In this document: in pieces, positions 40,220-64,000 of the stretch | Position numbering within the stretch: the first letter of the stretch is position 1 | How the letters are laid out: each line of letters begins with the position of its first letter | Virus record (IMG/VR): IMGVR_UViG_3300025687_000001 | Location: 64,001 to 128,000 of that record | Reading direction: 5' to 3' (one strand) | Length of the DNA stretch: 64,000 bases | From: a virus | The notes under the pieces: generated by a model | Told to the model about the DNA's origin: nothing | What the model saw: only the letters and a program-made list of their open reading frames with translations | Database searches by the model: none | Program-made: the position numbers and the translations under genes

Positions 40220-40605
40220 GAGTGCTTCTGATCGAGGACTGCCCAGACGATGAGGTCAGGTCCCTAGCAGCTTTGCAGGCGACAGAGATGCCCCTGAACG
40301 TAACGGTGGCGCATAACAGCGGTGATGCGAAGAAGTCCCTGGAGGAGTCCGGTCCCTGGGACATAGTCCTTGTGGACTTTCGACTGCCTGGGAGCATCGA
40401 CGGGGTGACGCTGGCCGAGCTGGCTATGGAGTTGTACCCCGACGCACGGGTCGCGATGTTGACCGGACTCCCCGAAGCAGCGTCTCGTGCGTTAAAAGAC
40501 AACCGTATCCTGGTGTTTGGTAAGGACATCTTCTTGCGTGGGCACGTCGCAGCGCTGGTCCACGACGCTTCTATCCAGCCGGGCACGTTGTACGCGGTAG
40601 GCTGA
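40216..40605 (+). CDS. single-domain response regulator (REC)
   Basis: LIEDC, VDFRLPG, MLTG, GK; GTGA-coupled start. Confidence 0.85.
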   Translation: MRVLLIEDCPDDEVRSLAALQATEMPLNVTVAHNSGDAKKSLEESGPWDIVLVDFRLPGSIDGVTLAELAMELYPDARVAMLTGLPEAASRALKDNRILVFGKDIFLRGHVAALVHDASIQPGTLYAVG

Positions 40606-41888
40606 TGTTTCGGTTAACTGTTGACGCGAAGGGGGTTATTGTCGAGGCGGATGCAGCCGCCTCGCGTCTCCTCGAGAGAGAGCTTGTCGGCGTCTCTGTA
40701 GACGTCCTGGCCGGAGGAGACCACGCCCGTCTACGAAAAGCTGTTGCCCCGGACGAGGCCCGGCCAATGGCGCGGACGCTAAAGCTCGGTCAACGGTATG
40801 TGGACGTCGCGTTTGGTGCTGCCGACGTAAGCAGCAGCCGCCACGTTTGGGTCGCAGACCGAACAACAGAGACCACCGTGTTGCGGCTTTTAGAGCTTGG
40901 CTTGGATCTGGCCTGTACCGCAACAGACGGCTTACATTTTGATTACCTTTCTCCGTCCTGGGAAAAAACACTAGGCTGGTCGCTGGAAGAACTTCGAGCG
41001 CGGCCGTTTGTAGAGTTCGTACACCCGGAAGACGTCCCAGCCACAGCGGCGGTGGCCGAAGAGATGCTCGCTAGTCAAGGTGTGGTGCAGCTGTTCCGCA
41101 ACCGCTACCGGCACAAGAGCGGTTCCTGGGTCTGGCTGGAGTGGATGGCGCGGGTCGCGGACAACATGTTTTGGGCGAGTGCTCGCGACGTGACTCGTTT
41201 GGTCGAGGTCGAAGCTCGACAGACACGCACCTTACGAGAGATGGAGCAGTTCAGTTACGCCGCCGCCCATGATCTGAAGGCGCCGTTACGCCGCATTACC
41301 AGTCTCGCCAGGAGCGCCGTGATGGCGCTGGAAGCCGGTGATAACGAGAAGCTGGTCAAGCGGCTGGAGCAGATCGCTGCCGCCGGAGAAGACGGGTCCT
41401 CGGTCGTCGAGGCAGCGTTGGAGTACGCATGCCTCGGGGGCGAAGTCACGACTGCCCCGGCGGATGTGGAGGATGCCATAGGCGCAGCTCTGAGGCGATC
41501 GGGTGTCCTTCACGGCGGTGCCCCCCTTTCCGCTAAAGGTCCCGAGGGGGTCACTGTGCGGTACCACAAGGAGGGGCTCGTCGCGGCTATCACTAATCTG
41601 CTCGACAACGCGAAGAAGTACGGTGACGGTTCTGCCATCTCCATCACGTGGGACAATAGTGCGCACGGCGGTGCGTGGATTGCCGTGGCAGACCAAGGCC
41701 GCGGTTTCGACCCCGAGTGGGCAGAGCGGGTGTGGGAGCCGGCGTGGAGAGGGCATAGTGACGTGGCAGGACACGGCTTCGGACTGGCCAAAGTACGAAA
41801 GCTGATTGAATCAATGGGCGGCGCCGTGCGGGCGTCGTCCCCCGGTCCGGGCAAGGGGGCCGTCTTTGTGATCGAGTTGGAGCTATGA
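40605..41888 (+). CDS. PAS-domain sensor histidine kinase
   Basis: PAS LGWS.EEL..VHPED; H box AHDLKAPL; N box NLLDNAKKY; G1 DQGRG; G2 GHGFGL. Confidence 0.92.
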   Translation: MFRLTVDAKGVIVEADAAASRLLERELVGVSVDVLAGGDHARLRKAVAPDEARPMARTLKLGQRYVDVAFGAADVSSSRHVWVADRTTETTVLRLLELGLDLACTATDGLHFDYLSPSWEKTLGWSLEELRARPFVEFVHPEDVPATAAVAEEMLASQGVVQLFRNRYRHKSGSWVWLEWMARVADNMFWASARDVTRLVEVEARQTRTLREMEQFSYAAAHDLKAPLRRITSLARSAVMALEAGDNEKLVKRLEQIAAAGEDGSSVVEAALEYACLGGEVTTAPADVEDAIGAALRRSGVLHGGAPLSAKGPEGVTVRYHKEGLVAAITNLLDNAKKYGDGSAISITWDNSAHGGAWIAVADQGRGFDPEWAERVWEPAWRGHSDVAGHGFGLAKVRKLIESMGGAVRASSPGPGKGAVFVIELEL

Positions 41889-46361: not shown

Positions 46362-47127
46362 GGCTGTGTCAGCCCTAGGCAAAGCCTCGGCTATCTTGAA
46401 AGGCCAAGGGTGGGAGAACACCTTCACTGGAGCCATCCAGCACCCGAAAATCCACAGCATGGATCTTCCGGTGCACAAGAGCGTCTACGCCCACCCTGAC
46501 GGGCGCGCCATGCACCTTCGGATGTTCTACAACGACTACGACACGGTAATCCTCGAGACCCCAGAAGGCCCCTCCATGCTGCACCACACGCAGCTTACTC
46601 GGGAGACGCTGTGCCCACACTAACCGACATGAGCAAGCCCCTTCAGGTACGCGTTGCTCGAGAGGACTTCCGCACAGACCCCGACGACGGGCTGTGCCCG
46701 TACCACTCTCTGTGCGAAAAGCGCGCGGGGCACCACGGACGCTGTGCTAACGGCAACCTGTCCTGGCTCACGAACAAGGCTCGCCCTGAGTTGTATTGGG
46801 GCGCTGACTTCGCTGATGCCTGGATGGAGCGCCACAAGCCGTACCTGAGAAAGAAGAAGCGCAAGTGACGCACGCCTGGCTTGCCAGCACGTACAGCATC
46901 TGTGGTCTACTGGCTTACTTCGGTATCCTGATGACCGCCGTGCTGGCTGTGCACCAGAACCCTCCCGCTACAAGTGACAAGGAGTCGCGTGGAGAGCAGA
47001 TCGTGCTGCTCTTCATGCTAGCGCTGGTTTGCATGGTCACGTGGCCTTTGCTGCTTGCGCTGCTTCTTGGGAAAACCACAAAGGATGGGAGCCTGGATTG
47101 ACTCCCTATCTTTCATAAGAAACCGAG

Positions 47128-50105: not shown

Positions 50106-53100
50106 GCCTTCCCAAGGCAGTTGCCGGAAGGGCGGCAGGGCCCTCGATGTACAGACTGTGGAGGCAAAATAGATGGGTAGCGAAGCGTCCCACACCCGGT
50201 ACGTAGTGCAAGCCAAGGAAGGCTGGTACATCGCCGGAAACACGGAAAAGACGTTGGCTAGCTTAGGCAGAGCCCGGCAGTGGAGCACCAAGGCTGAGGC
50301 TGATGCCTGGGCTAAGCCCTACGGCGGCGAGTACCGCGTGCTAGAAATCACAGTCCACATCAAGGTTGCGTGAAACCTGGCACAAGAGAGTATGACAAGC
50401 CTAGTAAGGCAGATTGACGCTGCCCTACAGCTTCTTGGTTGGAGTCCCCTTACGGACTTTGGAGAGATTAGTCTCTGCAGTTTACGTGAAGAGTGGGTGG
50501 CCGATATGACGGCTAATCTCTCCTGGCCGAGGGACGCCCAGATTAGTAGATGGTGCAGCAGCGCTACCCGTGGCGTAGGGAAAGAGGCGGGTACCACAAT
50601 CTACGTCCTAGCCAACCTAAAAGACCCGCACATGGTGTTCCTGGCCTCCCTCACACACCTAGGCCCAAGCAAGTTCAGCAGCGAACACGCAGTGCTTCAC
50701 GCAAACTACCCAAACTGGGAATGGCTGCTCAACCACACTGCAGCCCAGTAGAAAACCCCGACGTGTCGTGCCTGCTACAACTAATCCATTGGGATACTTA
50801 AGTAAGTTAGCGGGTGTCATGGACCTCGCGGGCTTTACCTACGTTGATCGGTGGCTAACGCCTCAACTGATCGGGGGGTTGCCCACCGACATGGCCCACA
50901 ACCCTAGCAGGGTAGACTATGTACTCGGAGAGTCCGTGCATGTAGTGGCGTGTGTCGTAGAAGTAGGGTTCCAGGTCAAGCAGGCCAAGCTGGCCATCTA
51001 CGTCTACAGCCCTGAAAAGCCTGAAGTACCCGGCTACCACGCTGTGCTCGACAACGCTGTTGCCGCTTTCGGCGTTGTTGCTGCTTTCATTGAGGACATG
51101 AGATGAGCCTGATTGACCTTAGCAACTGGGACCCCGCCTTCATCAAGGCTAGCGCTGCTGCGCTGCTTACGCTGCCCGTTGACCCAGCAGAGGTGCAGGT
51201 CCAGCTGCGTGCTAGTGAGTTGAATACGTATTCCTCGGAAGGGGTGATGACATGGCCCTACTCAAAGGATGTCCTCTCTAGCTATGGCGACACTCCGTGG
51301 GTCAGTGCAATCTGGTTAGACCTGGCCAACCTGCCAGGTCTTCACTTTCGGTCAGCCAGTTACGACCTCTGGTACATCAATACTCGCTGGATCGTGGGGT
51401 GCAACGTCCACCCAGACCATCCAGGGCTGCCGGAGATATCCTGGTGCAAAGAAGTCAGCACTCCCTACGAAGTCTACGAGGGCGGCGTGAGAGCACTCAA
51501 TGAGCTCTGGTCCTGTGGATAGCCCGCCCTTGCACGGACGGCTGTTCGACCGTACATGGGCGCCACGGCCTGGTGCTGTACGTGTTTGTGCGGCTGAGCA
51601 GTGGTAGCGCCTACGTGGTCAGCAACGTGTCGTGGGCGCAAATGTTCAAGCGCCCTTCAAGACAGGGAAATATGCTTCACGTAGGACGCCCTAGCTGGGA
51701 GCTGAAGCGCGAGCGTACGCGCGTAAGCCTTGAGCACCCCGCAGAAGTGCAGCAACACATCCTCAAGGAACTCGACCGGCCTCACAGGCATGCAAAACGA
51801 ATTAGCGCTCAACGCTAAGCTGCTCCTGAGAGCAGCAGAGCTGTTAGGGTGGGAAGCGCCGGTGCAGGTAGCCACAAGCTCCCTGGACAAGCACATCGGG
51901 GCAGGGATCTACTACACTATTGGGCGGTTCTCAGGGCGAGGCATCACCATAAGCGTAGCTACGAGCACCGACAACGTCTGGAAACCCCTGCTAACTTACG
52001 GACCCTGCGAGCGGCGCGAGCCTACGCACTGGGAAGACCGACAATACAAGCATCCCAAGTACGTCTTCATGCCTTCGTATAGGCGAGAACAATGTAACAG
52101 CATACAAACACTGTTCGCAGCGACAGACTTTCTCGCAGAGCAAGCAGCGTGGTTCAGGGACTGTTCCCGCAAGGGAAGGCTGTATGTACGAAAGGAGTAC
52201 TCCTCGTGAGTGACCTGAGGACACTGCTTACCTCGCTTGCGCTGCTTGGGTTCCAAGCAAACCGCGCGGGCGGCATGATCAGTGGTAGGTTCGAATTCAG
52301 CGAGGCCAATACATTGGTGCTAGTCTACGTGCCCGACGACCGAGGCCGCCTGTACTTGTCGCTGACCATAACGCCTTCCGCCCTAGACTGGGTGGCCTCG
52401 ACAACTACCCAATTTCCGGTGACCTGGGTGACCCCCCAAGACTTCCCTGCAGTGGCAGCATGGCTTCTCAGCGGATTGCCTCGAGATGAGTAAAGCAACG
52501 CTCAACGCTACCAATGACCAAGACTGAAGCGCGAGTAGCGCTAGAGGCGCATGGGTACGTGGCCCGCTACCCCTCCGCTGCTTTCCCTAATCACGCTAAC
52601 GGGGTACTGGTAGCTAAGCGCGGAGCGCCTACTGTGCTATCGCTGTCCTATAACCCGGACGTACTGGACCTGGTACTCGAGGTAGGTTCTGCAGATGTGT
52701 GGAAACAATCGGGTGGGCTCTTTGTTCAGTGGCATCTTCCGGGTCTTCGACCAATAGGTACCCCCTACCACTACCACCACGACGGTTACCTGCCGTCTGA
52801 GTACTTCCTGGAGTTCTTGCTGCTGATGAAGAAAGCCTTTCATGACATCACCGGCAGCTGAGCTCCTTTTTAGCCCGCAAGACCAGGCGGCGTTTGTGGC
52901 ACAAGCGAGTATGAACCTGACTACCGCGGCACAGGTCTTTGATCTTTGCGGCTACGATGTCGAAGCCGTCTACCCAACTAGGCCGTCGCTGTTAGCCACC
53001 ACCCGCGGCGCCTTCTCCACCGGCGGCGCCTTCTCTGGGCAAACTGCGGACACAATAGAGTGTGAGCTTAGCATCGACTCGTGTGGTTTCCTATTGACAG

Positions 53101-54981
53101 TCCTCTACGGGAAGGCTTGGTATCCCACTCTTAGAGATCCCTTGCGCACTTGGGTAGACAGCGAACCCCACATGCAAGAGCTAGAAGTACACACAGCGCA
53201 AGAGCTGCTTGCGCTGTGTGCGTGGCTGAAGACAGCGCTGTGAGCCACAACAGATACCCTACAAATGAAGAGGCCTGGGAGATGCTAAAGCTCATGGGCT
53301 TCCACCAGTCTTACATCCCTAGCCATGTACGCGAATCTCTCTCTGCTGTGTACTGCTATCCAAAAGTACACATGCGACACGCGGTCCTTGAGATACGGTG
53401 GTTCGAAGGCGCAGGGAACCTTTTCGCCCATTTGAGCGGTGGCTGGGTCAGCAACACACTTACGTCACCGTGGGAGATAATGTTTGTTCGGTGGGACCCG
53501 TGGGAGCCAGGCCTTCCACACACTCTCGCTGGAGTAGCGCTAACGCTGCCCAAGCTGCAAGCTCGGCTCGCCGAGCTCATGCAGCAATTCAAGGAAGCCA
53601 ATGCTTCGCTGTACGCCTGACCGAGCTTGTCTTGTCTTTGAGCTGCTAGGGTTCGCCAACCTGGCGTACTACACCCGGGACCCCCAGCGCCGAGCCGCCA
53701 CGGGATTTCACAGCGCGGGAGGCCACCTCTACGCTCTCGTAGTGGCCTGGGACGCGGAGGTGGAAGAGTTTTTCTCCGAAGCAGGCCTCGGCATGATCCT
53801 CGACACTTCGGATCCCCCCACGCAGCCTCCGACAGTGGTTTGGTCCGCGATGTATCCTCCGGAGCCCTTGCTCCCAGCAATAGAAGTGAAGACAGTGCAA
53901 GAGCTGCTCAACGCTACTTGCGCTGCTTTCGCTGCTTTCCATGAAAAATACGGAGATGACTAGAACAGAGTTTGAGATGCTGGCCACGATGTGTGGTTAC
54001 AGAGTGATTACGAGAGACAAAAACGTGTCTAAGTCGTCTGTCGTGGCCTTCGCTACTTGCTATGACACAGGACGAACTAAGCGCGGTGACACGCCCGCAG
54101 TGCTAGTCAAGTGGCTAGCGCCTCCGCCTACATACTTAGGGGTCACCGCAGGCTACGCCCGCCTAATTCCCCTCATCCACGAGGGTAGACTGACACACTG
54201 GACTCACTGGACGAGGCAGGTATACTCCTCTGGGATCCCCCCGCTGCCTGATGCCAAAGAGCTAGCAGCGCTGTTTGCGTGGTTGGCGGAAGGAGTCCTA
54301 AGTGTTGAGACCTAGTGTCCTCCGGGAGGTGCTTGCGCTAGCTGGGTACCACCCTGCTTCCATCCGACACTGGTTTGTGCTGACTTCTCGAGGCACGTCT
54401 GTCCCCCACCTGGCAGAGTCTGACTGTTTTGTCTTGAGTGTAGATATCACCATGCAGGGATCACTGCGCTTCGAGGCAGGCACTGCTATAGTTGCTTTCT
54501 CTGCTGAAGACGACCCAGGCTGCTGCGCAAAACTCTTTCGCTACGGCCGCGCTTCTCTGGTGGAAAGCCTAGACACACCAGACACACCCGAAGAGCTCCT
54601 CGAGCTCCTGGTAAACAAGGCGGAAGCCTTTTACAGGGAGTACAGTGCCAAGCATTGAGCTGAGTGACAGTAGGAAAGAGTGGCTGCTACAGCTTGCCGG
54701 GTTTGAGATGGTGTACTTAGCTCCACGGCAATACATTGGTAGTCTTAGGCTGCCCGCAACCGGACAACTCTTGCTGGCACAACCACTGACAACAGAGCTA
54801 CGCATGTGGCACGGCGTGGGAGGTACTCACCAGACGTCTTACGGTCGCAGGTCCTACAGCTGGCAAAGCATACCAGTCTTTATCCACTGGCAATATCAAG
54901 GCCCAACAGAGTGGGCAGTGTACGCACAGCTGGTAGAGGCAGCCAACGAGTTTATGGAGACTGGTGTCATCGAGATGTGTT

Positions 54982-55308
54982 GTGACCAGGACTGAGATGC
55001 GAGCGCCGCTAGCGCTGCTTGGCTTTCGCGTTTTGAGCAAGGAAGGCCCCTTGGAGTGGGAGGTAGCGGCGAAACAGCTGCCTGGTAGGCCAAAGCTTAT
55101 CTACGTAGATATGGCAAAGGCCGGACCTCCGCATAAGCTCAATGTGTACATAGGTGACGGGGTAATCCTCGGAGTAGAGACAGACGCATACCTGAGGGGA
55201 ATTAGGTGGGGCTCCCCTCCTAAGATAAACCGCAGCGACTGAAGTGTCAGCACTCCGATACAGTTGGCCATTGTGTTAGCCAACCAAGTAAGGCTTGCTC
55301 ATGACTAG
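54982..55308 (+). pseudogene. array paralogue with in-frame TGA
   Basis: TGA at 55240-55242 followed in frame by SVSTPIQLAIVLANQVRLAHD. Confidence 0.6.
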
Positions 55309-56081
55309 GACTGAGATTGGTATTGTCTACCTTGCCTTAGGCATAGAGACTACCACACCCAAGCCCACACACTACTATCCCTGGTTCCTCGGGGTTAGAG
55401 AAGTGGGTCCCTGCGTTTTGTGGGTAGAGACCAGCAACTCTGACGCAAGTGGCGTGAGAAGCCACATCAATGCTTACTGGGGCCCAGGAGTGTTAGAAGG
55501 CTCCGTGGGTCGCAGACGACCTGACCGCGGATGGGACGTTGTACACCGCAGACACTTCAACTGTGACACCCCGCAAGAACTCTACGATCTCCTGGTACAA
55601 GTAATAGGTGAGATCGCAAAGCATGACTCGAACTGAGCAATGTAGCCACTACCAGCTGCTCCTGGAAATCACAGACCGCTTCGTTAGATATGCCTCTCGT
55701 GACTAAGCAAGAGCTAGCAATGACATTGTCGCTGACAGGGTTTACCCGGACACACCCTGCTGACGCTGTTTGGGTTGGCGGCGCTAAAGGTGTAGGAGAC
55801 AACCTGCTGTGGGTTACCATCACTGATGTCATAGGCGAGTGGTACACCCGAGCTGAGTGGGGGACTGGCTCCTTAGCCAATCGCTCGACTTTGACTCACT
55901 ACTCCCATAGGGACGGCTACACGGGCACGGAATACTACCCTAGGTGGGCGTACCGCCGAGACGGGGGCTTCTTCCCAAGGCGCAAGCAGGTCAAAGCAAC
56001 GTCAGCAACGCCAGCAGCGTTCCTCGCTGAGCTCGCTGAACTCACTGCTCGCGCTGCTGCCTACGACCCCACAAAGACAGC

Positions 56082-56310
56082 ATGACACGCGCAGAAGCAG
56101 AGCTGGCGCTGACTTGCGCTGGCTACACGCTGATGTTGTGGCCTGGGGTGTTCTTAAGGAAAATCGAGGGATCCTTACATAGCGTGGGAAGGCGAACGCA
56201 GGTACCCGCTTTACCGGCTAAAGAAAAGACACGACGTGACCAGCTTACGCGGCTTCGCTGATTTCCTTGTTGCGCTGAGAGAGCAGTACTTGCAGGAGGT
56301 TGGGTGCTGA
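56082..56310 (+). pseudogene. frameshifted array paralogue
   Basis: MTRAEAELALTCAGY start; C-terminal helix TSLRGFADFLVAL is in another frame. Confidence 0.5.
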
Positions 56311-57191
56311 GCCCAGCTCAAGCAGCGCTAGCAATGCAAGGGGCGGGGTTGATGCTGACTAGCGAACGAGCTGCCCCGATCCTCCGCGTCGGGAGTCTGC
56401 TTCGAATACCATGGGCCCCCGCGGACACTCGGGAATACGCCCCCGGCCTCGGGGCCACCTACACCGAGAATAGTCACGGTGAGGGCAGGCTGTACGTGCG
56501 CACTGGACCAGCGCGATGGACGCCTCGAGTTTCCGTGGGAGGTCAGCCCTACGCCACAATTAGCTGGAAGCTAGATGGCGCGTTGATGCAACAAATACCC
56601 TGGGACTCCAACGACCCTGTTGAGCTGACGCGCTTCTTGCGCTGGTTCGTTGATTGGTTTGTCGAGACACAGGCTAAAGAAAAGTGATCAGCGCAAGCAG
56701 CGTTAGCCTGATTTTAGAGGTACTAGGGTTCAGGCTAGCTTACCCGTACCAGCCAAAGTTAGTTGTCGGTGGGGGGTTGCAAGTGCCCTTTACCGGTAAG
56801 CTAGCCACTAGTCTAGTCGTGGAGCACTACCGCTTAGCCAACGTCTTGTACCTTTACTGCGGTAACGCCTTGGTTTGGGATCCTGAACCAGGCATCACTG
56901 TCGTGGAGGTCAAGGACGACATAGACCAACTGGGCCTGTACACCAACGCACCTGAGGATCCCACAGAGCTCTATAACTTCTTGTTATGGATCGTCGACTG
57001 GTTCGTTTCAACCAGACATGCCGCGACGAGCAGCCTCAGCGAAGGCAGAGAAGGCAGCGTCAGCCCGGTGTCGGCCCAGACCACTTAACAGGTACTGGGC
57101 TGACACCGGAAGTTGCGCTAGTTCTCGCTTTAGATTTACCGGGCCAGGCTGTTGCGGAGTACGCGCGTAGTACGACTCCTTGACAATGCCT

Positions 57192-58001
57192 CTAGCGCTC
57201 AGCTCCCCCCGGTAGGGCGTTTCTTTTAGCTCCGACATGGTCTAAGTCTAGGGCTGCGGTGGGGGGAAAGGCAAGCTTACGCTGCTGCTCTGCTTGCTTG
57301 AGAAAAGCGAGGGGGTCGGGGTGCTGCTGGAGCTGCCTAAGCAGCTTAGCGTCTAAAGAATCATCAACAGCGAAGGCAGCGTCGAAGGCGTGTCCATACG
57401 AGACGTCATCGTCGTATAGCAGCTCCTGCAGCTTATCGTAGGTGAACTGCTCCCAATTTGGGTGCTGCTTGCGCCAGAGCACGCGGAGCTTGGTGATTGG
57501 ATCGCCGTCTCGGTCGTCTAGGACATCAAAGTACGAGTCGTCCCAGCAGGCGCGGAATTCTCTGTCGGTTGAGCTAGTAAAGGCCAGCAGCGCCTGCCAG
57601 GCAGCAAGGCCAGCTTCTTTTAGGTCGGGGAGCGAGGAGGGCGTTGCTTGCGCTGCTGCTCTGAGGGCTTCTAAGGCGTCGAGCAGCTGACCATAGGCAG
57701 GGGTAGGGACTTGGTCTCTTCGTGGGCCTACGCTGACGAGGGCCGCATCTACGCGCTTTAACACCTCCAAGCCTATGGAGACGTTTATGCTTTGCAACCT
57801 GCCCACCTTACGACCTGCTTTGCTGCTTCGTTGTTTGACCGCGCCCTGGAGCCAAGTAGCGAGGATCGCATGGGCGCGTTGAGGATTTACGTAGGGCATA
57901 TACCGATGATTCGTGTCTGGGGTTTCGAGGGTAGAAAAAGCATATCGCAGAGGAAGTGAGTAAGAAACAGCGCAAGCAGCGCCAGCAACACTTTCATCCA
58001 C
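57192..58001 (-). CDS. hypothetical protein
   Basis: Only minus-strand gene in the region; start may be ATG at 57899. Confidence 0.5.
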   Translation of the reverse strand: MDESVAGAACAVSYSLPLRYAFSTLETPDTNHRYMPYVNPQRAHAILATWLQGAVKQRSSKAGRKVGRLQSINVSIGLEVLKRVDAALVSVGPRRDQVPTPAYGQLLDALEALRAAAQATPSSLPDLKEAGLAAWQALLAFTSSTDREFRACWDDSYFDVLDDRDGDPITKLRVLWRKQHPNWEQFTYDKLQELLYDDDVSYGHAFDAAFAVDDSLDAKLLRQLQQHPDPLAFLKQAEQQRKLAFPPTAALDLDHVGAKRNALPGGAER

Positions 58002-58163
58002 ATCAATGATATCCTCTATTACTTCTAACAGAGAACCCCTGTTTTCAATGATTACGCGGACTTAGCCAGTAAGCTTCGAAATTTTCGAACGCGCTCTAAG
58101 TACTGGAATCTATTGGGAAATCAGACACAAGTCTCACGTTATAACTAACAATCCTTTTTTCCC

Positions 58164-58749
58164 TTTAATTTCAAGGGTTTCGACTTTTGGTTTTCGATTG
58201 TCAATAAGTTTCAAGTACTTAGGCGTTGCCCTGCGCGAGCAGCCGCCTCGAAAAGTGGCCCTAATGCGCTGATTTCATTGAGAAATTCGCTGCATCTATA
58301 TCTTTATGGGAGAGGTTTTGCGCACCATAACCTAATACCCAAAACCCTGGCTACTAGAGTAGCCGACAAAAGAGCGGCATAGAATTGTAAAATTCCATAA
58401 GCAAATCTTATGGTAACCCAACACTGCAAGCTCAAGCAGCGCTAATAGGCTTTCTCGACCCTCAGGAGAAAATTTTGACTTTTGAGATTACTAACACAAA
58501 TAACAAATAAGCTTTAATGAGTAATAAAAGCTTCTACTTCTTATGCATTGAGACATAAATGTCCCAGCAGATTTCGTTTGTAAGCTCTTTACCCAGTACT
58601 CTCTCATAAAGATATAGATATAGGTAAAAAGGTAATAGTTTTAGTTAGTTAGGGTCACTTTTGCAGGCGGCTGCTCGCGCAGGGCAGTCTCTAACTACCC
58701 GGAATCTATGCGCATTTGCTTTTCGAAAGTCGAACTCGTTGAAATCATT
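58164..58749. repeat. AT-rich element with about 150-bp collinear inverted arms
   Basis: Perfect 22-bp pair 58227-58248/58665-58686 and 20/21 pair 58294-58314/58599-58619 on the same axis. Confidence 0.85.
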
Positions 58750-59108
58750 AAGAATTTCCCGATTTTCAGCTATGCAAAAAGTATAAGGTGTAACTTTACC
58801 GTATGACTAGATTTTGAAATCTCTACTATTCCTCACAAGCTTCTATTCCCGCGGACGTTTTTGCTCTAATACTTCTACGCCGACATGTAGGTATAGAAAC
58901 TACTTCTACTGAGACCTTAGCACCTCACTTTTTGCAGCACACGCACCTACATGTACTGCGCTGTCGTATCAGCGTTCACATCAAAAACAGTGCTCTCGCC
59001 CTCCGCACTTTCTAAATCCCCCAAATCCTCCACCAACCCCCTCCCTCGCTCAAATTCCGCCCCCGACCCAAATCGCGCTACTCTTTCCGCACAACAACAA
59101 CCGGCTTC

Positions 59109-59118
59109 CTGGTAAAAG
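59109..59118 (+). promoter_or_regulatory. promoter motif CTGGTAAAAG
   Basis: 6 nt before ATG 59125. Confidence 0.6.
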
Positions 59119-59124
59119 AACACG

Positions 59125-59526
59125 ATGAGCAACCCCCCAACTCCACCCTGGGTCCGAACTACCGCGCGACTCGTTCGCACGAAGGAATTCAAGACCCTCC
59201 TGGAGTCGTTGATGCCCCCACACAAGGCACGCATCCTCGCTGAGGCATTGACGAACTACTACTCTGTAGACAGAAACCCAGAAGCCCGAGAGAACTACTG
59301 GGATGAGTTCACTGATCCGGGCCTAGAGCTGTGCTTTGACAAACACGGCCCCCGCTTCGAAGGCAGCGCAGGCAGCGCAAGCAGCGCAAGCAGCGCAAAC
59401 AAGGCCCTCCAAGCAATCGTGGCCACCGTAGCCCCCTCTCACCCCTCTACCCGCCCCCCACACTCCGCTCAAACCCCCGCGCCCACGCCCACCCAACTCT
59501 CTGCTAGCCCTAATGAGCGCAAGTAA
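59125..59526 (+). CDS. hypothetical protein
   Basis: Follows the promoter motif. Confidence 0.5.
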   Translation: MSNPPTPPWVRTTARLVRTKEFKTLLESLMPPHKARILAEALTNYYSVDRNPEARENYWDEFTDPGLELCFDKHGPRFEGSAGSASSASSANKALQAIVATVAPSHPSTRPPHSAQTPAPTPTQLSASPNERK

Positions 59527-61607
59527 GACGTACGCGCGTACAACCGAGCAAGTTTCTGCCACCCCCAGCACCTCCGCCACCCCCGACCCCATCGACTGGC
59601 TCACCACCGACGCAGGGTTGGCGTGGCTTCGCTGGCTCACCCTGCCTGTAGTCGTACGCCCGTGGTTCCCTACGGGAGTAGTGGCAGTTGCCGCAAACCC
59701 TATAACCACCACCTCCGCCAGCGCTTTGCGAGACTTCGCCGCCAAGCTCCACGACACCAGCCGCTTGTTGTTGGCAGTCTTGCCCTCCTCCGCAGATAAC
59801 CTATTGGCGGGCGCTTACTTGGACACAAGCACAGCCCGATTATTCACTCGAACAATGCGTAACGTAACTCTCGCCAATACCGCCTCTCTCTGCGACCTCC
59901 AGGACCCCCTCGAGCTCCACAAATGGCTGACAGAGCAAGCAGCGCTAGTGCACCAACAGCACTAGCACCACACCTAAGCGACGAAGAAGAGCTAGCCTGC
60001 CTGGTGCGTACCCTGGCACCCACTACTCTCCTGGCTGGCTACGAGCTCGTGCACCAAGACCTTACAGACAAGAGGTACTGGCGCTTCGTGTTGGATGACG
60101 TAGCTGGCGAGTTCAGCCAGACTTCCACCGACCTCGACGTCTGGCAGCTCCCCTGCACCTCCGCCACACACCCCACCCCCGCCTGCATAATGGCAATCAA
60201 TCCTTACGCTGACTGCATGCGAGTCGTTTGGATTGAGGGAGACCCGTCACGTGAGCTTATGGGACCAAGCATCAAGCTAGCTACATTCGACTTCCCGGAA
60301 CCTCTCTTCCCGGTCACCCCCACCACCCAGCTTGAGTTTTACACGTGGCTAGTAGAGTGCAAGAAGAAGTACCTGGCGCCATCCAGAACACAGTCGCCCA
60401 GTTAGCTGGGTTTGTGTACTCTTACGAAGAGGCCACGTTACCTGCTTACTGGGAGACCTTCCTTGATCACTACCCAGACCGCGCTTTCTCCACAGCGGAC
60501 TGCGCGTTTTATGTCTGGGAATACACCATAAAGCGATAGTGTCGCTCAACCCCTACCCACCCCCAGGCCGCAGTCCCTACTTGGTTAGCCCCTCCGTTCC
60601 ACACGGGACTTTTCCTCTTCAGGTCTCTCAGGATTCTCCAAACCCATTGGACACCCAGCACTACCTGGATTTCTATGTAGGGCTGACCCGTCTGCGCCTG
60701 GCAGTGTTCCCAGCGCCGCCAGGAGCACCATGACCCCAGAAGAAATCGCAGCAGCACTAACAGCGCTAGCACCGACAGCAGCGCTAGCAGGGTACGTCTC
60801 TACAAAACCTACCAGCGTCTCTGCTGGCCTCGGTGCCAACGCCCACTATGACCCGCGGTTCTGGCAGCGCACGTTGGACAATTACCAGGGGTTTAATGAA
60901 CAGGTAGCTGTGTGGGATATCTGGGTATACGAAGCAACTGGCAATGACACCGGAAGCAACGACTTACGGGCAGTCATCATTGCTGTAAACCCATATGCCC
61001 GCGCCCTACAGTGGGTGTGTGCTTTCCCAGCTACGCCAACCCTAATAGAAGCAAGGTTCCGACTCCCTACTAACACCAGCACCAACACACCCTACCCACC
61101 CTTTTTCCACTGGGAACTATACACGTGGCTATGTACCTGTCGAAAGAAAAGCCTTACGGCGACCTTCCAAACCCAGTAAGATACAAACTCCTGGTCGACT
61201 TCGTAAACATGGCAGAGAAGGTCCTGCTACTCACTGCCTTGCCAGTGCGGCTGGGCGACTCTCCAGAGTATTACAGGCATATCTTGTTGCCTACGTACGA
61301 GACATGGAAGCGGGATGTGTTCAACCGCTGTGCGCGCAACCCCGTCCCTAGCCCCAGCGGGCATCCCTGTGCTGATTACTACAACCACCTGGCTTTGGTG
61401 TACACAGAGCCGGAAGGCGAGCGCGCCTCGAACACTCAGACAGAATCCTGGGTCTTCTGTCTGAGTGTGGTTGACTTGACTCTGTGCACCTTCAGCAGCA
61501 GCATATCGGGCCCAGCATACATCCGTCCCATGCCAGACCCACGCACCCCCAATGCTCCGACAGAGCTACTGGAATACATCCTAATGTGTCATAAGGCACT
61601 AACATGA
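59513..61607 (+). other. right block of small paralogous CDSs
   Basis: 59513, 59923, 60345/60539, 60730 and 61125 share subsets of LAG[YF], [FY]W..LD, NPY and ELY.WL-like motifs. Confidence 0.6.
60345..60733 (+). pseudogene. paralogue split by a frameshift
   Basis: First frame AQLAGFVY..YWETFLD..VWEY; second frame HKAIVSLNPY..YLDFYVGL aligns with neighbours. Confidence 0.55.
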
Positions 61608-62479
61608 CACCAGCAATACTGCTCAACCCCTTCTTCACTGCCATCACGCAAAGCACGCAGCGTACGGCAACGTTCTACATGTTTCAGTACTCGCCGGAGT
61701 CTTACCCGCCGGCGCCAGCCCCGGTGGCCAACACTTTGCTCCAGTACACAGTGCACACGCCGCCCTCTCTCGCGAGCACTGCTCTCGCAGCTGTTCCTTC
61801 TCCAACAGCAGCGCTAGCAGCGTACGTTCCCTCCCCACTAAGAGAGCTAGCGCTGCTAAACATGGTAAACGTGGGGGGACTCCCGCTCTTTGTACCTTGC
61901 GTAGACATGAAGACGGCCTCTTTTCGCACTGCCGGGCTCACGCCGGGCGCTTACATGACCATCGTACAAGACGTCGCAGAGATGGAAGACTACCTTGGGT
62001 TGCCAGCCATGATTTTCGACACGGGCAATTCTTATCATGTGTACTTCGAAGGGCTGTTGACTCAGAGTGCGCACGAGACGTGGTTGGGGTGGCTACGCGA
62101 CCTGGCTGAATCGGCGCAGTCGGACATTCGCTCACCGCAGATAGACTACACTTGGGTCAGGAACACCATCGACCGCAGGGTAGCAACGCTTCGGTGGACG
62201 CACACCACGCGGAGCAAGCAGCAAATCAAGCATTTGCCAACGCTTGCGTACATGCCACACGCGTCTGACAGCTCTCCGCTGGTCCCGCGGACCTGGCTGG
62301 ACCCTGAACACCCCGAAAACCCGTTCACTGCCCACCCAGCCCTCGGTCACAGCAGGTATTATGACGCGCGAACGCTGCCGCTGCCTCCGAACCCAGACCC
62401 GGATTTGCGGCCTGTTTTTGCTCGCACCAAAGCCGCCAGCATCTCCACCCCCAAAGCGAACTACACATGGACTCTCTGA
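61604..62479 (+). CDS. possible AEP primase-like protein
   Basis: PCVD, DTGNSYHVY, D..W....LR motifs. Confidence 0.4.
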   Translation: MTPAILLNPFFTAITQSTQRTATFYMFQYSPESYPPAPAPVANTLLQYTVHTPPSLASTALAAVPSPTAALAAYVPSPLRELALLNMVNVGGLPLFVPCVDMKTASFRTAGLTPGAYMTIVQDVAEMEDYLGLPAMIFDTGNSYHVYFEGLLTQSAHETWLGWLRDLAESAQSDIRSPQIDYTWVRNTIDRRVATLRWTHTTRSKQQIKHLPTLAYMPHASDSSPLVPRTWLDPEHPENPFTAHPALGHSRYYDARTLPLPPNPDPDLRPVFARTKAASISTPKANYTWTL

Positions 62480-63372
62480 GCTACATCCTCAAGACGCGCA
62501 TGCCGGAGCACCTGGACACGTTCAAGAGGCACTCTCTGCCACTGGAGTGGTCACGGCTCACGCAGAAGCGCTTGCTGTACCACCCGGACACGCGTGCGAT
62601 CTGGAACCAGCTGAGGTACTACGGGCTGCCAATGTACGCAGCGCAAGCAGCGCATGCAGCGAAAGCAGCGCTCATGCCGCTCTCAAGCCACAAACACACA
62701 CCTGCCATCTACGAGGGCCTGAACTTTGACCTGATGGACCTCTCCCGCACGGTGTGGGGTACGCTTGAGCTTCCGGCGTGCAGCTTTGTTGGAGCAGACC
62801 TCTCCCACTCCAACTTCTCTCGAGCCAATCTCACCAACACCGACTTCACGTACGCCAAAGCCACCAACGCGAAGTTCTCTCGTACGTTGGACCTGAGGCA
62901 CATTTCGTACCTGCGTAGCCGTACTCCGGCAATCAATAAGCGCCCCACCATGTACCACGACCGAGCGCGAGACGGCTCGGCAACACTATGGCCTTTGGAG
63001 GACTTTCAGCGCGCCCCCGACGCCCCGCCCCCCAAGCCACTCCCACCATCGCCAAAAGCGCCAGCGTCGCGGTCGGTGTTGTGCTTGTGTACACTGCACC
63101 ACTGGCATGCACGAGCCTTTCTGGCTCGACGAGCGTTGCGCACGTGGAAGTGGAAGTACCAACACGAGTGGGTGATTCACTTCCCGACAGGCTTTACCCC
63201 CGAAACCCGTCAAGCCGTCCGCATTCTACGCGCGTACGGGTACATTCCACACCTGCTGGCCGTCGAGTTGCACAGCGCGGGCTGGGAAGCTGGAGTGTTT
63301 TCGAGCTTTCTGCCGATGCCGGTTAGCGGTACTGAGTGGGAGACAGTGCGGGTGGTAGAGCGGCGGTTGTGA
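62467..63372 (+). CDS. pentapeptide repeat protein
   Basis: ACSFV GADLS HSNFS RANLT NTDFT YAKAT NAKFS. Confidence 0.75.
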   Translation: MDSLSYILKTRMPEHLDTFKRHSLPLEWSRLTQKRLLYHPDTRAIWNQLRYYGLPMYAAQAAHAAKAALMPLSSHKHTPAIYEGLNFDLMDLSRTVWGTLELPACSFVGADLSHSNFSRANLTNTDFTYAKATNAKFSRTLDLRHISYLRSRTPAINKRPTMYHDRARDGSATLWPLEDFQRAPDAPPPKPLPPSPKAPASRSVLCLCTLHHWHARAFLARRALRTWKWKYQHEWVIHFPTGFTPETRQAVRILRAYGYIPHLLAVELHSAGWEAGVFSSFLPMPVSGTEWETVRVVERRL

Positions 63373-63795
63373 GTACCAAACCGGGCCTATGGGCAGGCGG
63401 CATTCACGCAGCGCAAGTCAAGTTTGACGCCTGCTGCGAGGTGCTGTGGATGTTGGGGTGGCAAGACATTCACGGTCCTCAGATTATTCTTCACACAGGG
63501 TACGATCGAATGAAGCGCGTGTTTCGGCTCTCTACAAACCCCGCGATTTTGCTCCCCCACCGAGCTCGAGTGTTTTTTTGGGCACGGCGCCGCAGACTAC
63601 AGCCGAGGGGCCTATGTCCGCGTGGAGGTGGTAGTGACCACACCGCCAGAACCGGGCCAACACCCCTACCTGCTCTACGACGGTGACGGGTGTCCCCGAC
63701 CTCCTAGCTTTGTTGTCGTACAATGGGACAACCTACAAGCCCTAGGAGAAGCACTCTATGAATACACTGCTGCAGCGATTAGCGGACGCATTTGA
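63369..63795 (+). pseudogene. array paralogue frameshifted at a T7 run
   Basis: LWMLGW N-terminal motif; deleting one T at 63573-63579 restores an ORF ending LQALGEALYEY.. Confidence 0.5.
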
Positions 63796-64000
63796 GCTGA
63801 TGGGGTGGGAGGAGACTCCTCCTCCGTCTCGTAGGTACAACCAAGACGCGCCTCTCGACAATCCAGGGAGGTTTAAGTTTCCGGAGTCCCTGACAACCAA
63901 GAAGACCCCCAACACGCCGGTAGCGGTGCGAAGGTTTTCGCCGCCGCCAGAGTCCCCTGCCTACCCGCTAACAGCGCTAGCAACGCAAGTAGCGTCAGGC
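63758..64000 (+). CDS. array paralogue (partial)
   Basis: MNTLLQRLADAFELMGW, GGAG RBS. Confidence 0.5.
   Translation, partial: MNTLLQRLADAFELMGWEETPPPSRRYNQDAPLDNPGRFKFPESLTTKKTPNTPVAVRRFSPPPESPAYPLTALATQVASG

Follow-up and report, generated by a model that had tools for sequence, protein, structure and literature searches.

A long tandem array of strongly diverged small paralogues in the genome of an uncultured phage

What is the long run of small genes that fills the end of a 64,000-nucleotide stretch of viral DNA, and do these genes descend from one ancestor? The stretch, called the window below, covers bases 64001-128000 of IMG/VR record IMGVR_UViG_3300025687_000001, the genome of an uncultured phage represented by one contig of 160,861 bp that has direct terminal repeats and is rated complete (161 kb). 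A preliminary description based on the sequence letters had placed at 50392-64000 an array of about 24 highly diverged paralogues and had proposed one scaffold expanded into a library with a hypervariable surface. Our analysis showed that one small protein is encoded in this phage genome about 28 to 36 times, by strongly diverged genes that lie back-to-back. The run occupies the + strand from window position 50392, passes the window end and continues to the window-equivalent position ~70270, with two further + strand members at 74637-75306; it overshoots the window end by 6 to 11 kb and totals ~20 kb, i.e., one-eighth of the complete phage genome. It consists of open reading frames (ORFs) of 95-160 aa, whose ends overlap or almost touch (gaps of -4, -14, -20, -23 and -32 nt, the larger ones being few), and it lies in an accessory, co-directional + strand block. 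Most of the genes share the same build, an N-terminal helix ending with G-[FWY] (the N motif) and a C-terminal helix starting with [T/D]-P-x-E-L (the C motif).

The array genes are real. We take them as such because the GC content at their three codon positions is ~0.58/0.47/0.64, because a Shine-Dalgarno-like GGAG/GAGG/AGGA core is situated 4-18 nt upstream of 16 of the 39 starts vs. 11% at random positions (p 2e-6), and because nearly all of the ORFs are among the calls that an independent gene caller made on identical contigs of other samples.

The relatedness of the genes was evaluated by their motifs, by profile hidden Markov models (HMMs) and by pairwise comparison. Of the 39 array ORFs, 23 have the N motif in their first 60 aa vs. 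18 of the 394 ORFs with a length of 80 aa or more in the rest of the genome (Fisher p 4e-17), and both motifs co-occur in 8/39 array ORFs vs. 0/394 elsewhere. To avoid circularity, the genes for the HMMs were picked by position only, and the last 40 residues were scored alone. The leave-one-out (LOO) HMMs for these C-terminal residues put 18 of 39 genes into the top 1% of the 394 decoys and 22 into the top 5% (area under the curve, AUC, 0.83); the full-length LOO HMMs gave an AUC of 0.85, with 24/40 genes reaching the top 5% and 18 of these the top 1%. In comparison with 66 small gene-like decoys, 30 of 40 genes exceeded the 95th percentile, and the real-gene decoys scored no higher than spurious ORFs. 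A self-search with the family profile matched the + strand array only, which is circular, as the same genes had trained the profile. When an HMM was built from block 1 only (50392-57088), 7 of 22 later genes reached the top 5%: 63758 (rank 0), 66957, 68166, 69110, 74637 and 74980 clearly and 59923 marginally (genes are named here by their start positions); the reverse comparison brought 5 of 17 genes into the top 5%. Pairwise identity across the members is 9-25%, and only the Gly of the G-aromatic pair is invariant, one Pro being nearly so. The pairs that stand out are 59923/60730 (E 5e-15, 37% identity), 56304/56684 (E 1e-6, 32% identity), 52896/53601 (E 2e-4, 34% over 104 aa) and 55295/55690 (E 1e-3), and the 65596/66060/66544 group is also conspicuous in pairwise searches.

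From these profile scores, we read block 1 as a coherent family that comprises 17 genes and one remnant. To this family we also assign the trio at 59923, the gene 63758 and five or six genes of the distal part, while the membership of 8-10 other ORFs (59513, 61131, 64876-66544, 68572, 69379, 69761) is uncertain. All of the N-terminal and C-terminal strings named in the preliminary description were found in + strand ORFs where it had put them, and its count is a close match to the ~22 ORFs in the window with family support. The family run across 50392-64000 is likewise real, but the interval is not uniform, being interrupted by non-members (Table 1). As for one expanded scaffold, the members do cross-hit in HMM comparison, weakly but significantly, but the same fold throughout was not borne out by the two structural models described below. 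One might argue that there is no single family at all, and that the run comprises several unrelated or partly related ORFan groups whose end helices are alike by composition and convergence. Only four or five pairs are significant pairwise, the cross-block HMMs recover a minority of the genes in either direction, the 65111-66544 group is related mainly to itself, and the second structural model lacks a fold for its middle. We nevertheless regard this as unlikely, given that two separate end motifs co-occur in the array and in none of the 394 other ORFs, that position-picked genes reach an LOO AUC of 0.85, and that the gene-like decoys do not exceed spurious ORFs. Upstream of the array, an isolated 85-aa ORF at 46366-46623, which starts with ASAILKGQGWENT, gives 13 bits with the family HMM, among the best non-array matches, and may be a stray family member.

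How could so many copies arise? Genes at most two places apart have a mean score of 16.2 bits vs. 14.6 +/- 0.35 in 5000 shuffled gene orders, none of which was as high (p < 2e-4), and the five or six highest-scoring pairs consist of adjacent genes or of genes two places apart. Neighbours are thus most alike, which fits tandem duplication followed by divergence. Short patches of similar DNA were found at the MT[RK]xE start (16 nt, 94% identity, between the region of members 14-15, 55295-56085, and 54983), at the start of the C-terminal helix (28 nt, 86% identity, 52896 vs. 53601) and between 60730 and the N-terminal part of 61604, a protein resembling archaeo-eukaryotic primases (AEP-like; 26 nt, 92% identity, PTAALA[GA]YV). 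The collapsed copy at 56082-56261 bears a 16-nt match to the 3' end (the last codons) of gene 56304. The two ORFs of the split copy, 60345-60539 and 60539-60733, match the first and the second half of 60730, respectively, and the split of this 60345-60733 copy is present in another sample's contig too. The presence of collapsed, split and degraded copies shows turnover, in which copies arise and disappear.

The array DNA recurs with 100% identity in contigs of four other samples, along stretches of 20.4 kb, 12.8 kb, 1.6 kb and 0.9 kb. Therefore, the breaks in the split and collapsed copies are not assembly noise, and there is no present-day hypervariability. The hypervariable surface of the preliminary description overstates the case: the whole sequence is diverged, not the surface alone, and the DNA is the same in all four samples. 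The array was also considered as the target of a diversity-generating retroelement, and this was rejected, as there are no template/variable repeats and no long direct repeats, and the DNA is identical across samples (20.4 kb). A 9-nt-periodic word, GCAGCGCAAGCAGCGCAAGCAGCG, and its complement are scattered across the array in either orientation (e.g., window 59354-59410 and 62629-62685); they mostly encode Ala-rich helices, and so this recurrence is probably compositional.

Does the family exist outside this genome? Pfam, PHROGs, NCBIfam and PDB sequence profiles, searched with up to 32 members, gave nothing meaningful, in agreement with the preliminary description, which had recognised no family; a Pfam hmmscan of 28 members at E up to 10 gave no family match, and PADLOC models for 32 members gave no meaningful match and a single borderline one. 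Word-indexed searches of 5.8 billion proteins with 56684 and 60730 returned only self-matches. A HMMER search of 1.84 billion representatives with the 56304+56684 profile found, besides the query itself, a fragment of 56304 and two artefacts from repeat proteins, but no homologue. Scans of viral contigs with 54302, the SLT-like flank and the AEP-like protein, as well as metagenome scans with the 59923/60730 alignment, found none, and the 269-aa ORF that breaks the array (Table 1) had no relatives in scans of viral and metagenome contigs. Among 39 phosphoesterase-neighbour contigs, there was no family HMM match at E 0.1 (the lone match, L014, had E 0.45) and no motif enrichment (N motif 48/1288, both motifs 0). 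At the level of sequence comparison, these searches show that the family, for the four members queried, has no detectable homologue elsewhere. The sole related phage found is a 98.6-kb fragment (G001, IMGVR_UViG_3300032306_000439), syntenic with the phage genome at 1-102 kb with 30-68% protein identity. This fragment has, on its minus strand at 94507-97252, five adjacent paralogues of its own, all starting with MNPMLKIAYDYGC followed by Gly-rich segments.

To which fold might the proteins belong? AlphaFold2 models of two members were run with a 28-paralogue alignment. Model 1 (54302-54658; predicted local distance difference test, pLDDT, 65; predicted template modelling score, pTM, 0.47) has one helix near each end (residues 4-13 and 96-117), with several short strands and a long hairpin (strands 55-65 and 77-88) between them. 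Model 2 (56684-57088; pLDDT 57) is confident only in a helix at 4-13, a strand at 17-19 and a helix at 93-120. The end helices are the highest-confidence parts of both models. The beta-rich middle of the preliminary description is accordingly strand-rich in model 1 but not confidently modelled in model 2. Foldseek found no match in PDB or BFVD. In an exhaustive structural scan of model 1 against 48,161 PDB representatives, the YbjN proteins DR_1245 (4.7) and AmyR (4.4) were among the first, and the type III secretion chaperones were the best structural neighbours; the all-PDB scan with model 2 gave single-helix matches only. The ESM Atlas's own model of 52514-52861 has neighbours that include a YbjN-annotated cluster (template modelling, TM, score 0.51/0.43) and YjbR (TM 0.52/0.51); the ESM Atlas models of both members are of low confidence (pLDDT 0.40-0.42), and their feature hits are below 0.9.

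The type III secretion chaperones and YbjN proteins (together, TY-chaperones: SicP 1jyo, SycT 2bsj, ExsC 3kxy, DR_1245 4h5b, AmyR 5fr7; PF05932, PF10722) are similar in size, 110-140 aa, and have the same order of elements as predicted for the members, an N-terminal helix, a beta-meander and a C-terminal helix. The meander of TY-chaperones has five strands, with the two helices lying on the same face, and these proteins are homodimers to which an extended partner polypeptide binds. In the YbjN sequences that we fetched, the start helix ends with G plus a hydrophobic residue, and the end helix opens with [T/D]-x-[D/E]-E-[L/I]. The models hint at a weak fold resemblance to type III secretion chaperone/YbjN proteins, and we treat such a fold as a lead, not as family membership. 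The MT[RK]xE start recurs in ~6 genes. The T4-type internal proteins are defined by a short conserved N-terminal leader, which targets the capsid and has a protease site, in front of an otherwise unrelated body as variable cargo. In the array, however, there is a second conserved element, at the C-terminus, and both helices are the most confidently modelled parts, which makes the start more probably a fold element than a cleaved leader.

The conserved positions in the family are the helix-ending Gly plus aromatic, the helix-starting [T/D]-P-x-E-L and a hydrophobic residue or Trp, with no polar residue among them, and the isoelectric point (pI) of the members ranges from 4.5 to 10, several being basic (pI 9-10) and many acidic. 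From the lack of a conserved polar residue and this pI range, we infer that the proteins act by binding, not by catalysis. Could they be chaperones or adaptors in the true type III secretion sense, each holding a different packaged or ejected phage protein unfolded? The best structural neighbours of model 1 are such proteins. Type III secretion chaperones are, however, typically acidic, unlike members with pI 4.5-10; moreover, 30+ chaperones would far outnumber the plausible cargoes, the array lies in its accessory + strand block away from head or tail genes, and the sequences show no homology to CesT or YbjN. This makes the chaperone function quite improbable. The YjbR neighbour of the 52514 model and the basic members would suit nucleic-acid-binding regulators (YjbR/MmcQ, MotA 'double-wing', dsRBD/HicA), expanded to retarget host or phage transcription, and the helix/G-aromatic/strand start of the members may resemble that of HicA. 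Yet neither YjbR nor HicA was matched in Pfam by any of 28 members at E up to 10, many members are acidic, and no positively charged position is conserved, so that we hold a regulatory role to be very unlikely.

The explanation that we prefer, tentatively and at slightly less than an even chance, is a lineage-specific tandem expansion of one small family, whose copies are most likely non-enzymatic binders on a chaperone-like scaffold. Each protein would be a single small domain, in which the N-terminal and C-terminal helices pack on one face of an antiparallel beta-meander; a near-invariant Gly plus an aromatic residue would close the N-terminal helix, and the C-terminal helix would read [T/D]-P-x-E-L..W-[LFV]. 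The end helices and the sheet would serve as a fixed frame, while strands and loops would vary in length and sequence from copy to copy. The proposed topology is that of TY-chaperones, which grip partner polypeptides, and each copy might bind a different protein of the host (defence or housekeeping) or of the phage. The co-directional, overlapping arrangement of the genes suggests that the copies are made together, presumably from one transcription unit. Members might plausibly be binders of host defence proteins, as the preliminary description had offered by way of example, with which the lack of conserved polar residues and the setting in the genome are in keeping. The full proposal, namely a phage-built repertoire of peptide-gripping domains on a chaperone/YbjN-like scaffold, with each copy seizing a different host protein, e.g., a defence component, would be possible but rather doubtful. 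In place of attacking the host, the set might confer immunity, as antitoxins or as proteins like those of bacterial polyimmunity loci, guarding the cell or the phage from toxins or excluding rival phages. As there is no toxin gene nearby and, apart from one borderline PADLOC hit in 1/32 members, no match to a Pfam immunity family or to PADLOC, we give this idea hardly any credence.

Several results weigh against a single family of chaperone-like binders. The LOO profile scores are low (2-13 bits), 10-15 ORFs of the run have no support as members, and the block 1 HMM gives no demonstrated link to the 65111-66544 group. As to the fold, model 1 reaches only the pLDDT and pTM given above, and the middle of model 2 is below 50; the Pfam YbjN and CesT models gave no match in the six-frame translated phage genome, and hhalign of the family against 11 and 37 YbjN sequences, the 37 having been collected from Verrucomicrobiota and Actinomycetota genomes, was not significant (P 0.4-0.85); none of the loci drawn on belongs to G157 or G204, two genomes flagged as unpublished. 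The related phage fragment ends before the equivalent region, so the lack of an array in its 98.6 kb has no bearing on conservation.

Are such arrays known from other phages? Arrays of >30 genes, described as 'very similar genes', occur in phages G and 121Q (Hua et al. 2017, PMC5646251), and ~35 zinc-ribbon copies were found in Bacillus phage G (Iyer et al. 2021, PMC7824862); the authors attribute such arrays to tandem duplication (PMC5646251, PMC7824862). In common with these phages, the array described here repeats a small protein of unknown function tens of times, in co-directional genes that lie back-to-back. It differs in that it represents another family, has no zinc ribbon and shows only 9-25% identity, in a genome that, at 161 kb, is below the jumbo threshold. 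The hyperplastic early regions of T4-type phages and the host-takeover module of SPO1 are also blocks of small, closely packed, fast-evolving ORFans in the same orientation, thought to act on the host early; they consist mostly of unrelated genes, whereas the array genes mostly come from one ancestor. Bacterial polyimmunity loci (SUKH etc.) and the multigene families of large eukaryotic viruses are likewise tandem sets of very diverged small binding-domain paralogues that are read as products of an arms race, but they have other folds and hosts, and come with toxins or known targets; none is linked to the array. Paralogue arrays in big phages being already on record, the novelty lies in a new, very diverged, apparently orphan family, and it is this family rather than any new principle that gives the array its value. 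If the copies bind different targets, the array would amount to a panel of natural inhibitors or adaptors, ready-made for the host, and if they are binders, it would provide a case study of how a phage builds functions by duplication and fast divergence. If the chaperone/YbjN-like fold is true, a peptide-binding scaffold would extend to phage accessory proteins. A repertoire, if true, would be a phage counterpart of the polyimmunity loci and of the eukaryotic-virus multigene families, and its anti-host or anti-defence proteins would form a new structural class.

Table 1. Family members, remnants and interrupting features of the array. Positions are those of the window; ranks are from the leave-one-out (LOO) HMM test against 394 decoys (0 = best) and refer to full-length proteins unless marked C-term.
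Feature	Position	Strand	Description	LOO rank
Member 1	50392-50751	+	119 aa, LQLLGW	9
Member 2	50768-51106	+	112 aa, MDLAGF	12
Member 3	51103-51522	+	139 aa, without N motif	4; C-term 40 aa 1
Member 4	51790-52209	+	139 aa, AELLGW	2
Member 5	52206-52493	+	95 aa, LALLGF	8
Member 6	52514-52861	+	115 aa, MTKTE..LEAHGY	0
Member 7	52896-53243	+	115 aa, FDLCGY / TAQELL	0; C-term 0
Member 8	~53246-53620	+	LKLMGF, start uncertain	36; C-term 37
Member 9	53601-53963	+	120 aa, FELLGF / TVQELL	77; C-term 0
Member 10	53941-54315	+	MTRTE..ATMCGY	24
Member 11	54302-54658	+	118 aa, LALAGY / TPEELL; AlphaFold model 1	2
Member 12	54645-54995	+	LQLAGF	2
Member 13	54964-55242	+	92 aa, short, VTRTE..LALLGF, without C-terminal helix	2
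Member 14	55295-55636	+	113 aa, MTRTE..YLALGI / TPQELY	43
Member 15	55690-56085	+	131 aa, VTKQE..LSLTGF	1
Collapsed copy	56082-56261	+	59 aa, MTRAEAELALTCAGY then basic tail; N-terminal helix kept, middle gone	
Member 16	56304-56687	+	127 aa, MQGAGL / DPVELT	
Member 17	56684-57088	+	134 aa, LEVLGF / DPTELY; AlphaFold model 2	
Unrelated ORF	57192-58001	-	269 aa, breaks array; without Pfam or PHROG match	
Long imperfect inverted repeat	58168-58745		Not family; inside 58001-59125 gap	
Non-member	59212-59526		Clear non-member	
Uncertain member	59513-59965	+	150 aa, without N motif, DPLELH C-terminal helix	162; C-term 4
Trio, first	59923-60405	+	160 aa, TLLAGY..YTWL	0
Trio, split copy	60345-60539 + 60539-60733	+	Two frames, two 64-aa ORFs	
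Trio, last	60730-61179	+	149 aa, AALAGY..YTWL	0
Probable member	61131-61607	+	158 aa, APTELL C-terminal helix, without N motif	57; C-term 0
Non-member	61604-62479	+	291 aa, weak AEP-like	382
Non-member	62467-63372	+	301 aa, pentapeptide repeats; PF00805 E 4.5e-10	372
Probably degraded copy	63336-63686	+	LWMLGW; not called by gene caller	106 (1.9 bits)
Member at window end	63758-64000, continues to 64321	+	187 aa, FELMGW, ends with CPRC motif	0
Non-member	67798-68232 (window-equivalent; L001:4798-5232)		Beyond window end	

Within block 1, the start of member 3 overlaps the preceding stop by 4 nt, and members 10-13 (53941-55242) have mutual overlaps of 14-32 nt. In the probably degraded copy, the N motif is followed by a junk-like tail rich in Arg, Pro and Gly. 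The proteins encoded in the distal run at L001:758-1321 and L001:4798-5232 have similar C-P-[RH]-C ends, VECPRCGLQH and VKCPHCNETH, which may be a common zinc-binding tail. Among the non-members, 61604-62479 matches PF24387 (archaeo-eukaryotic primase-like) with E 2.6e-4 and 21 bits, under the cut-off of 27; as to the pentapeptide-repeat protein that follows, some proteins of this type mimic DNA.

The array is split at 58001-59125 by a 1.1-kb non-coding gap of lower GC, which accommodates the inverted repeat. Its outer arms (58168-58264 and 58649-58745) comprise 97 nt with 72% complementarity, and the inner arms (58294-58314 and 58599-58619) comprise 21 nt with 95%; the 611-nt stretch folds at -215 kcal/mol vs. 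-144 +/- 7 for shuffles (z = -10). An Rfam search of the gap gave no match. The gap might serve as an origin or a divergent control region, or it might represent a large hairpin element. A promoter and terminator scan gave counts not above those in shuffled sequence, and no early promoters or stem-loop cassettes were found.

The phage genome, which encodes a tRNA cluster and myovirus-type baseplate genes, shows no DNA-level resemblance to phage-collection records. Its GC content is ~0.58, and the composition of the array interval is unremarkable apart from a dip at 58-60 kb. The histidine kinase encoded at window 40605-41888 has its best cellular relatives in metagenome-assembled genomes of Verrucomicrobiales and Acidobacteriota (30-34% identity), a weak hint at the host group that may point to Verrucomicrobiota. 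Farther along the genome, at L001:9871-10074 (genome 136871-137074), there is a 67-aa ORF with ...LNHLGARGWEVVQLSE, which may be a small protein of the DUF4177 type.

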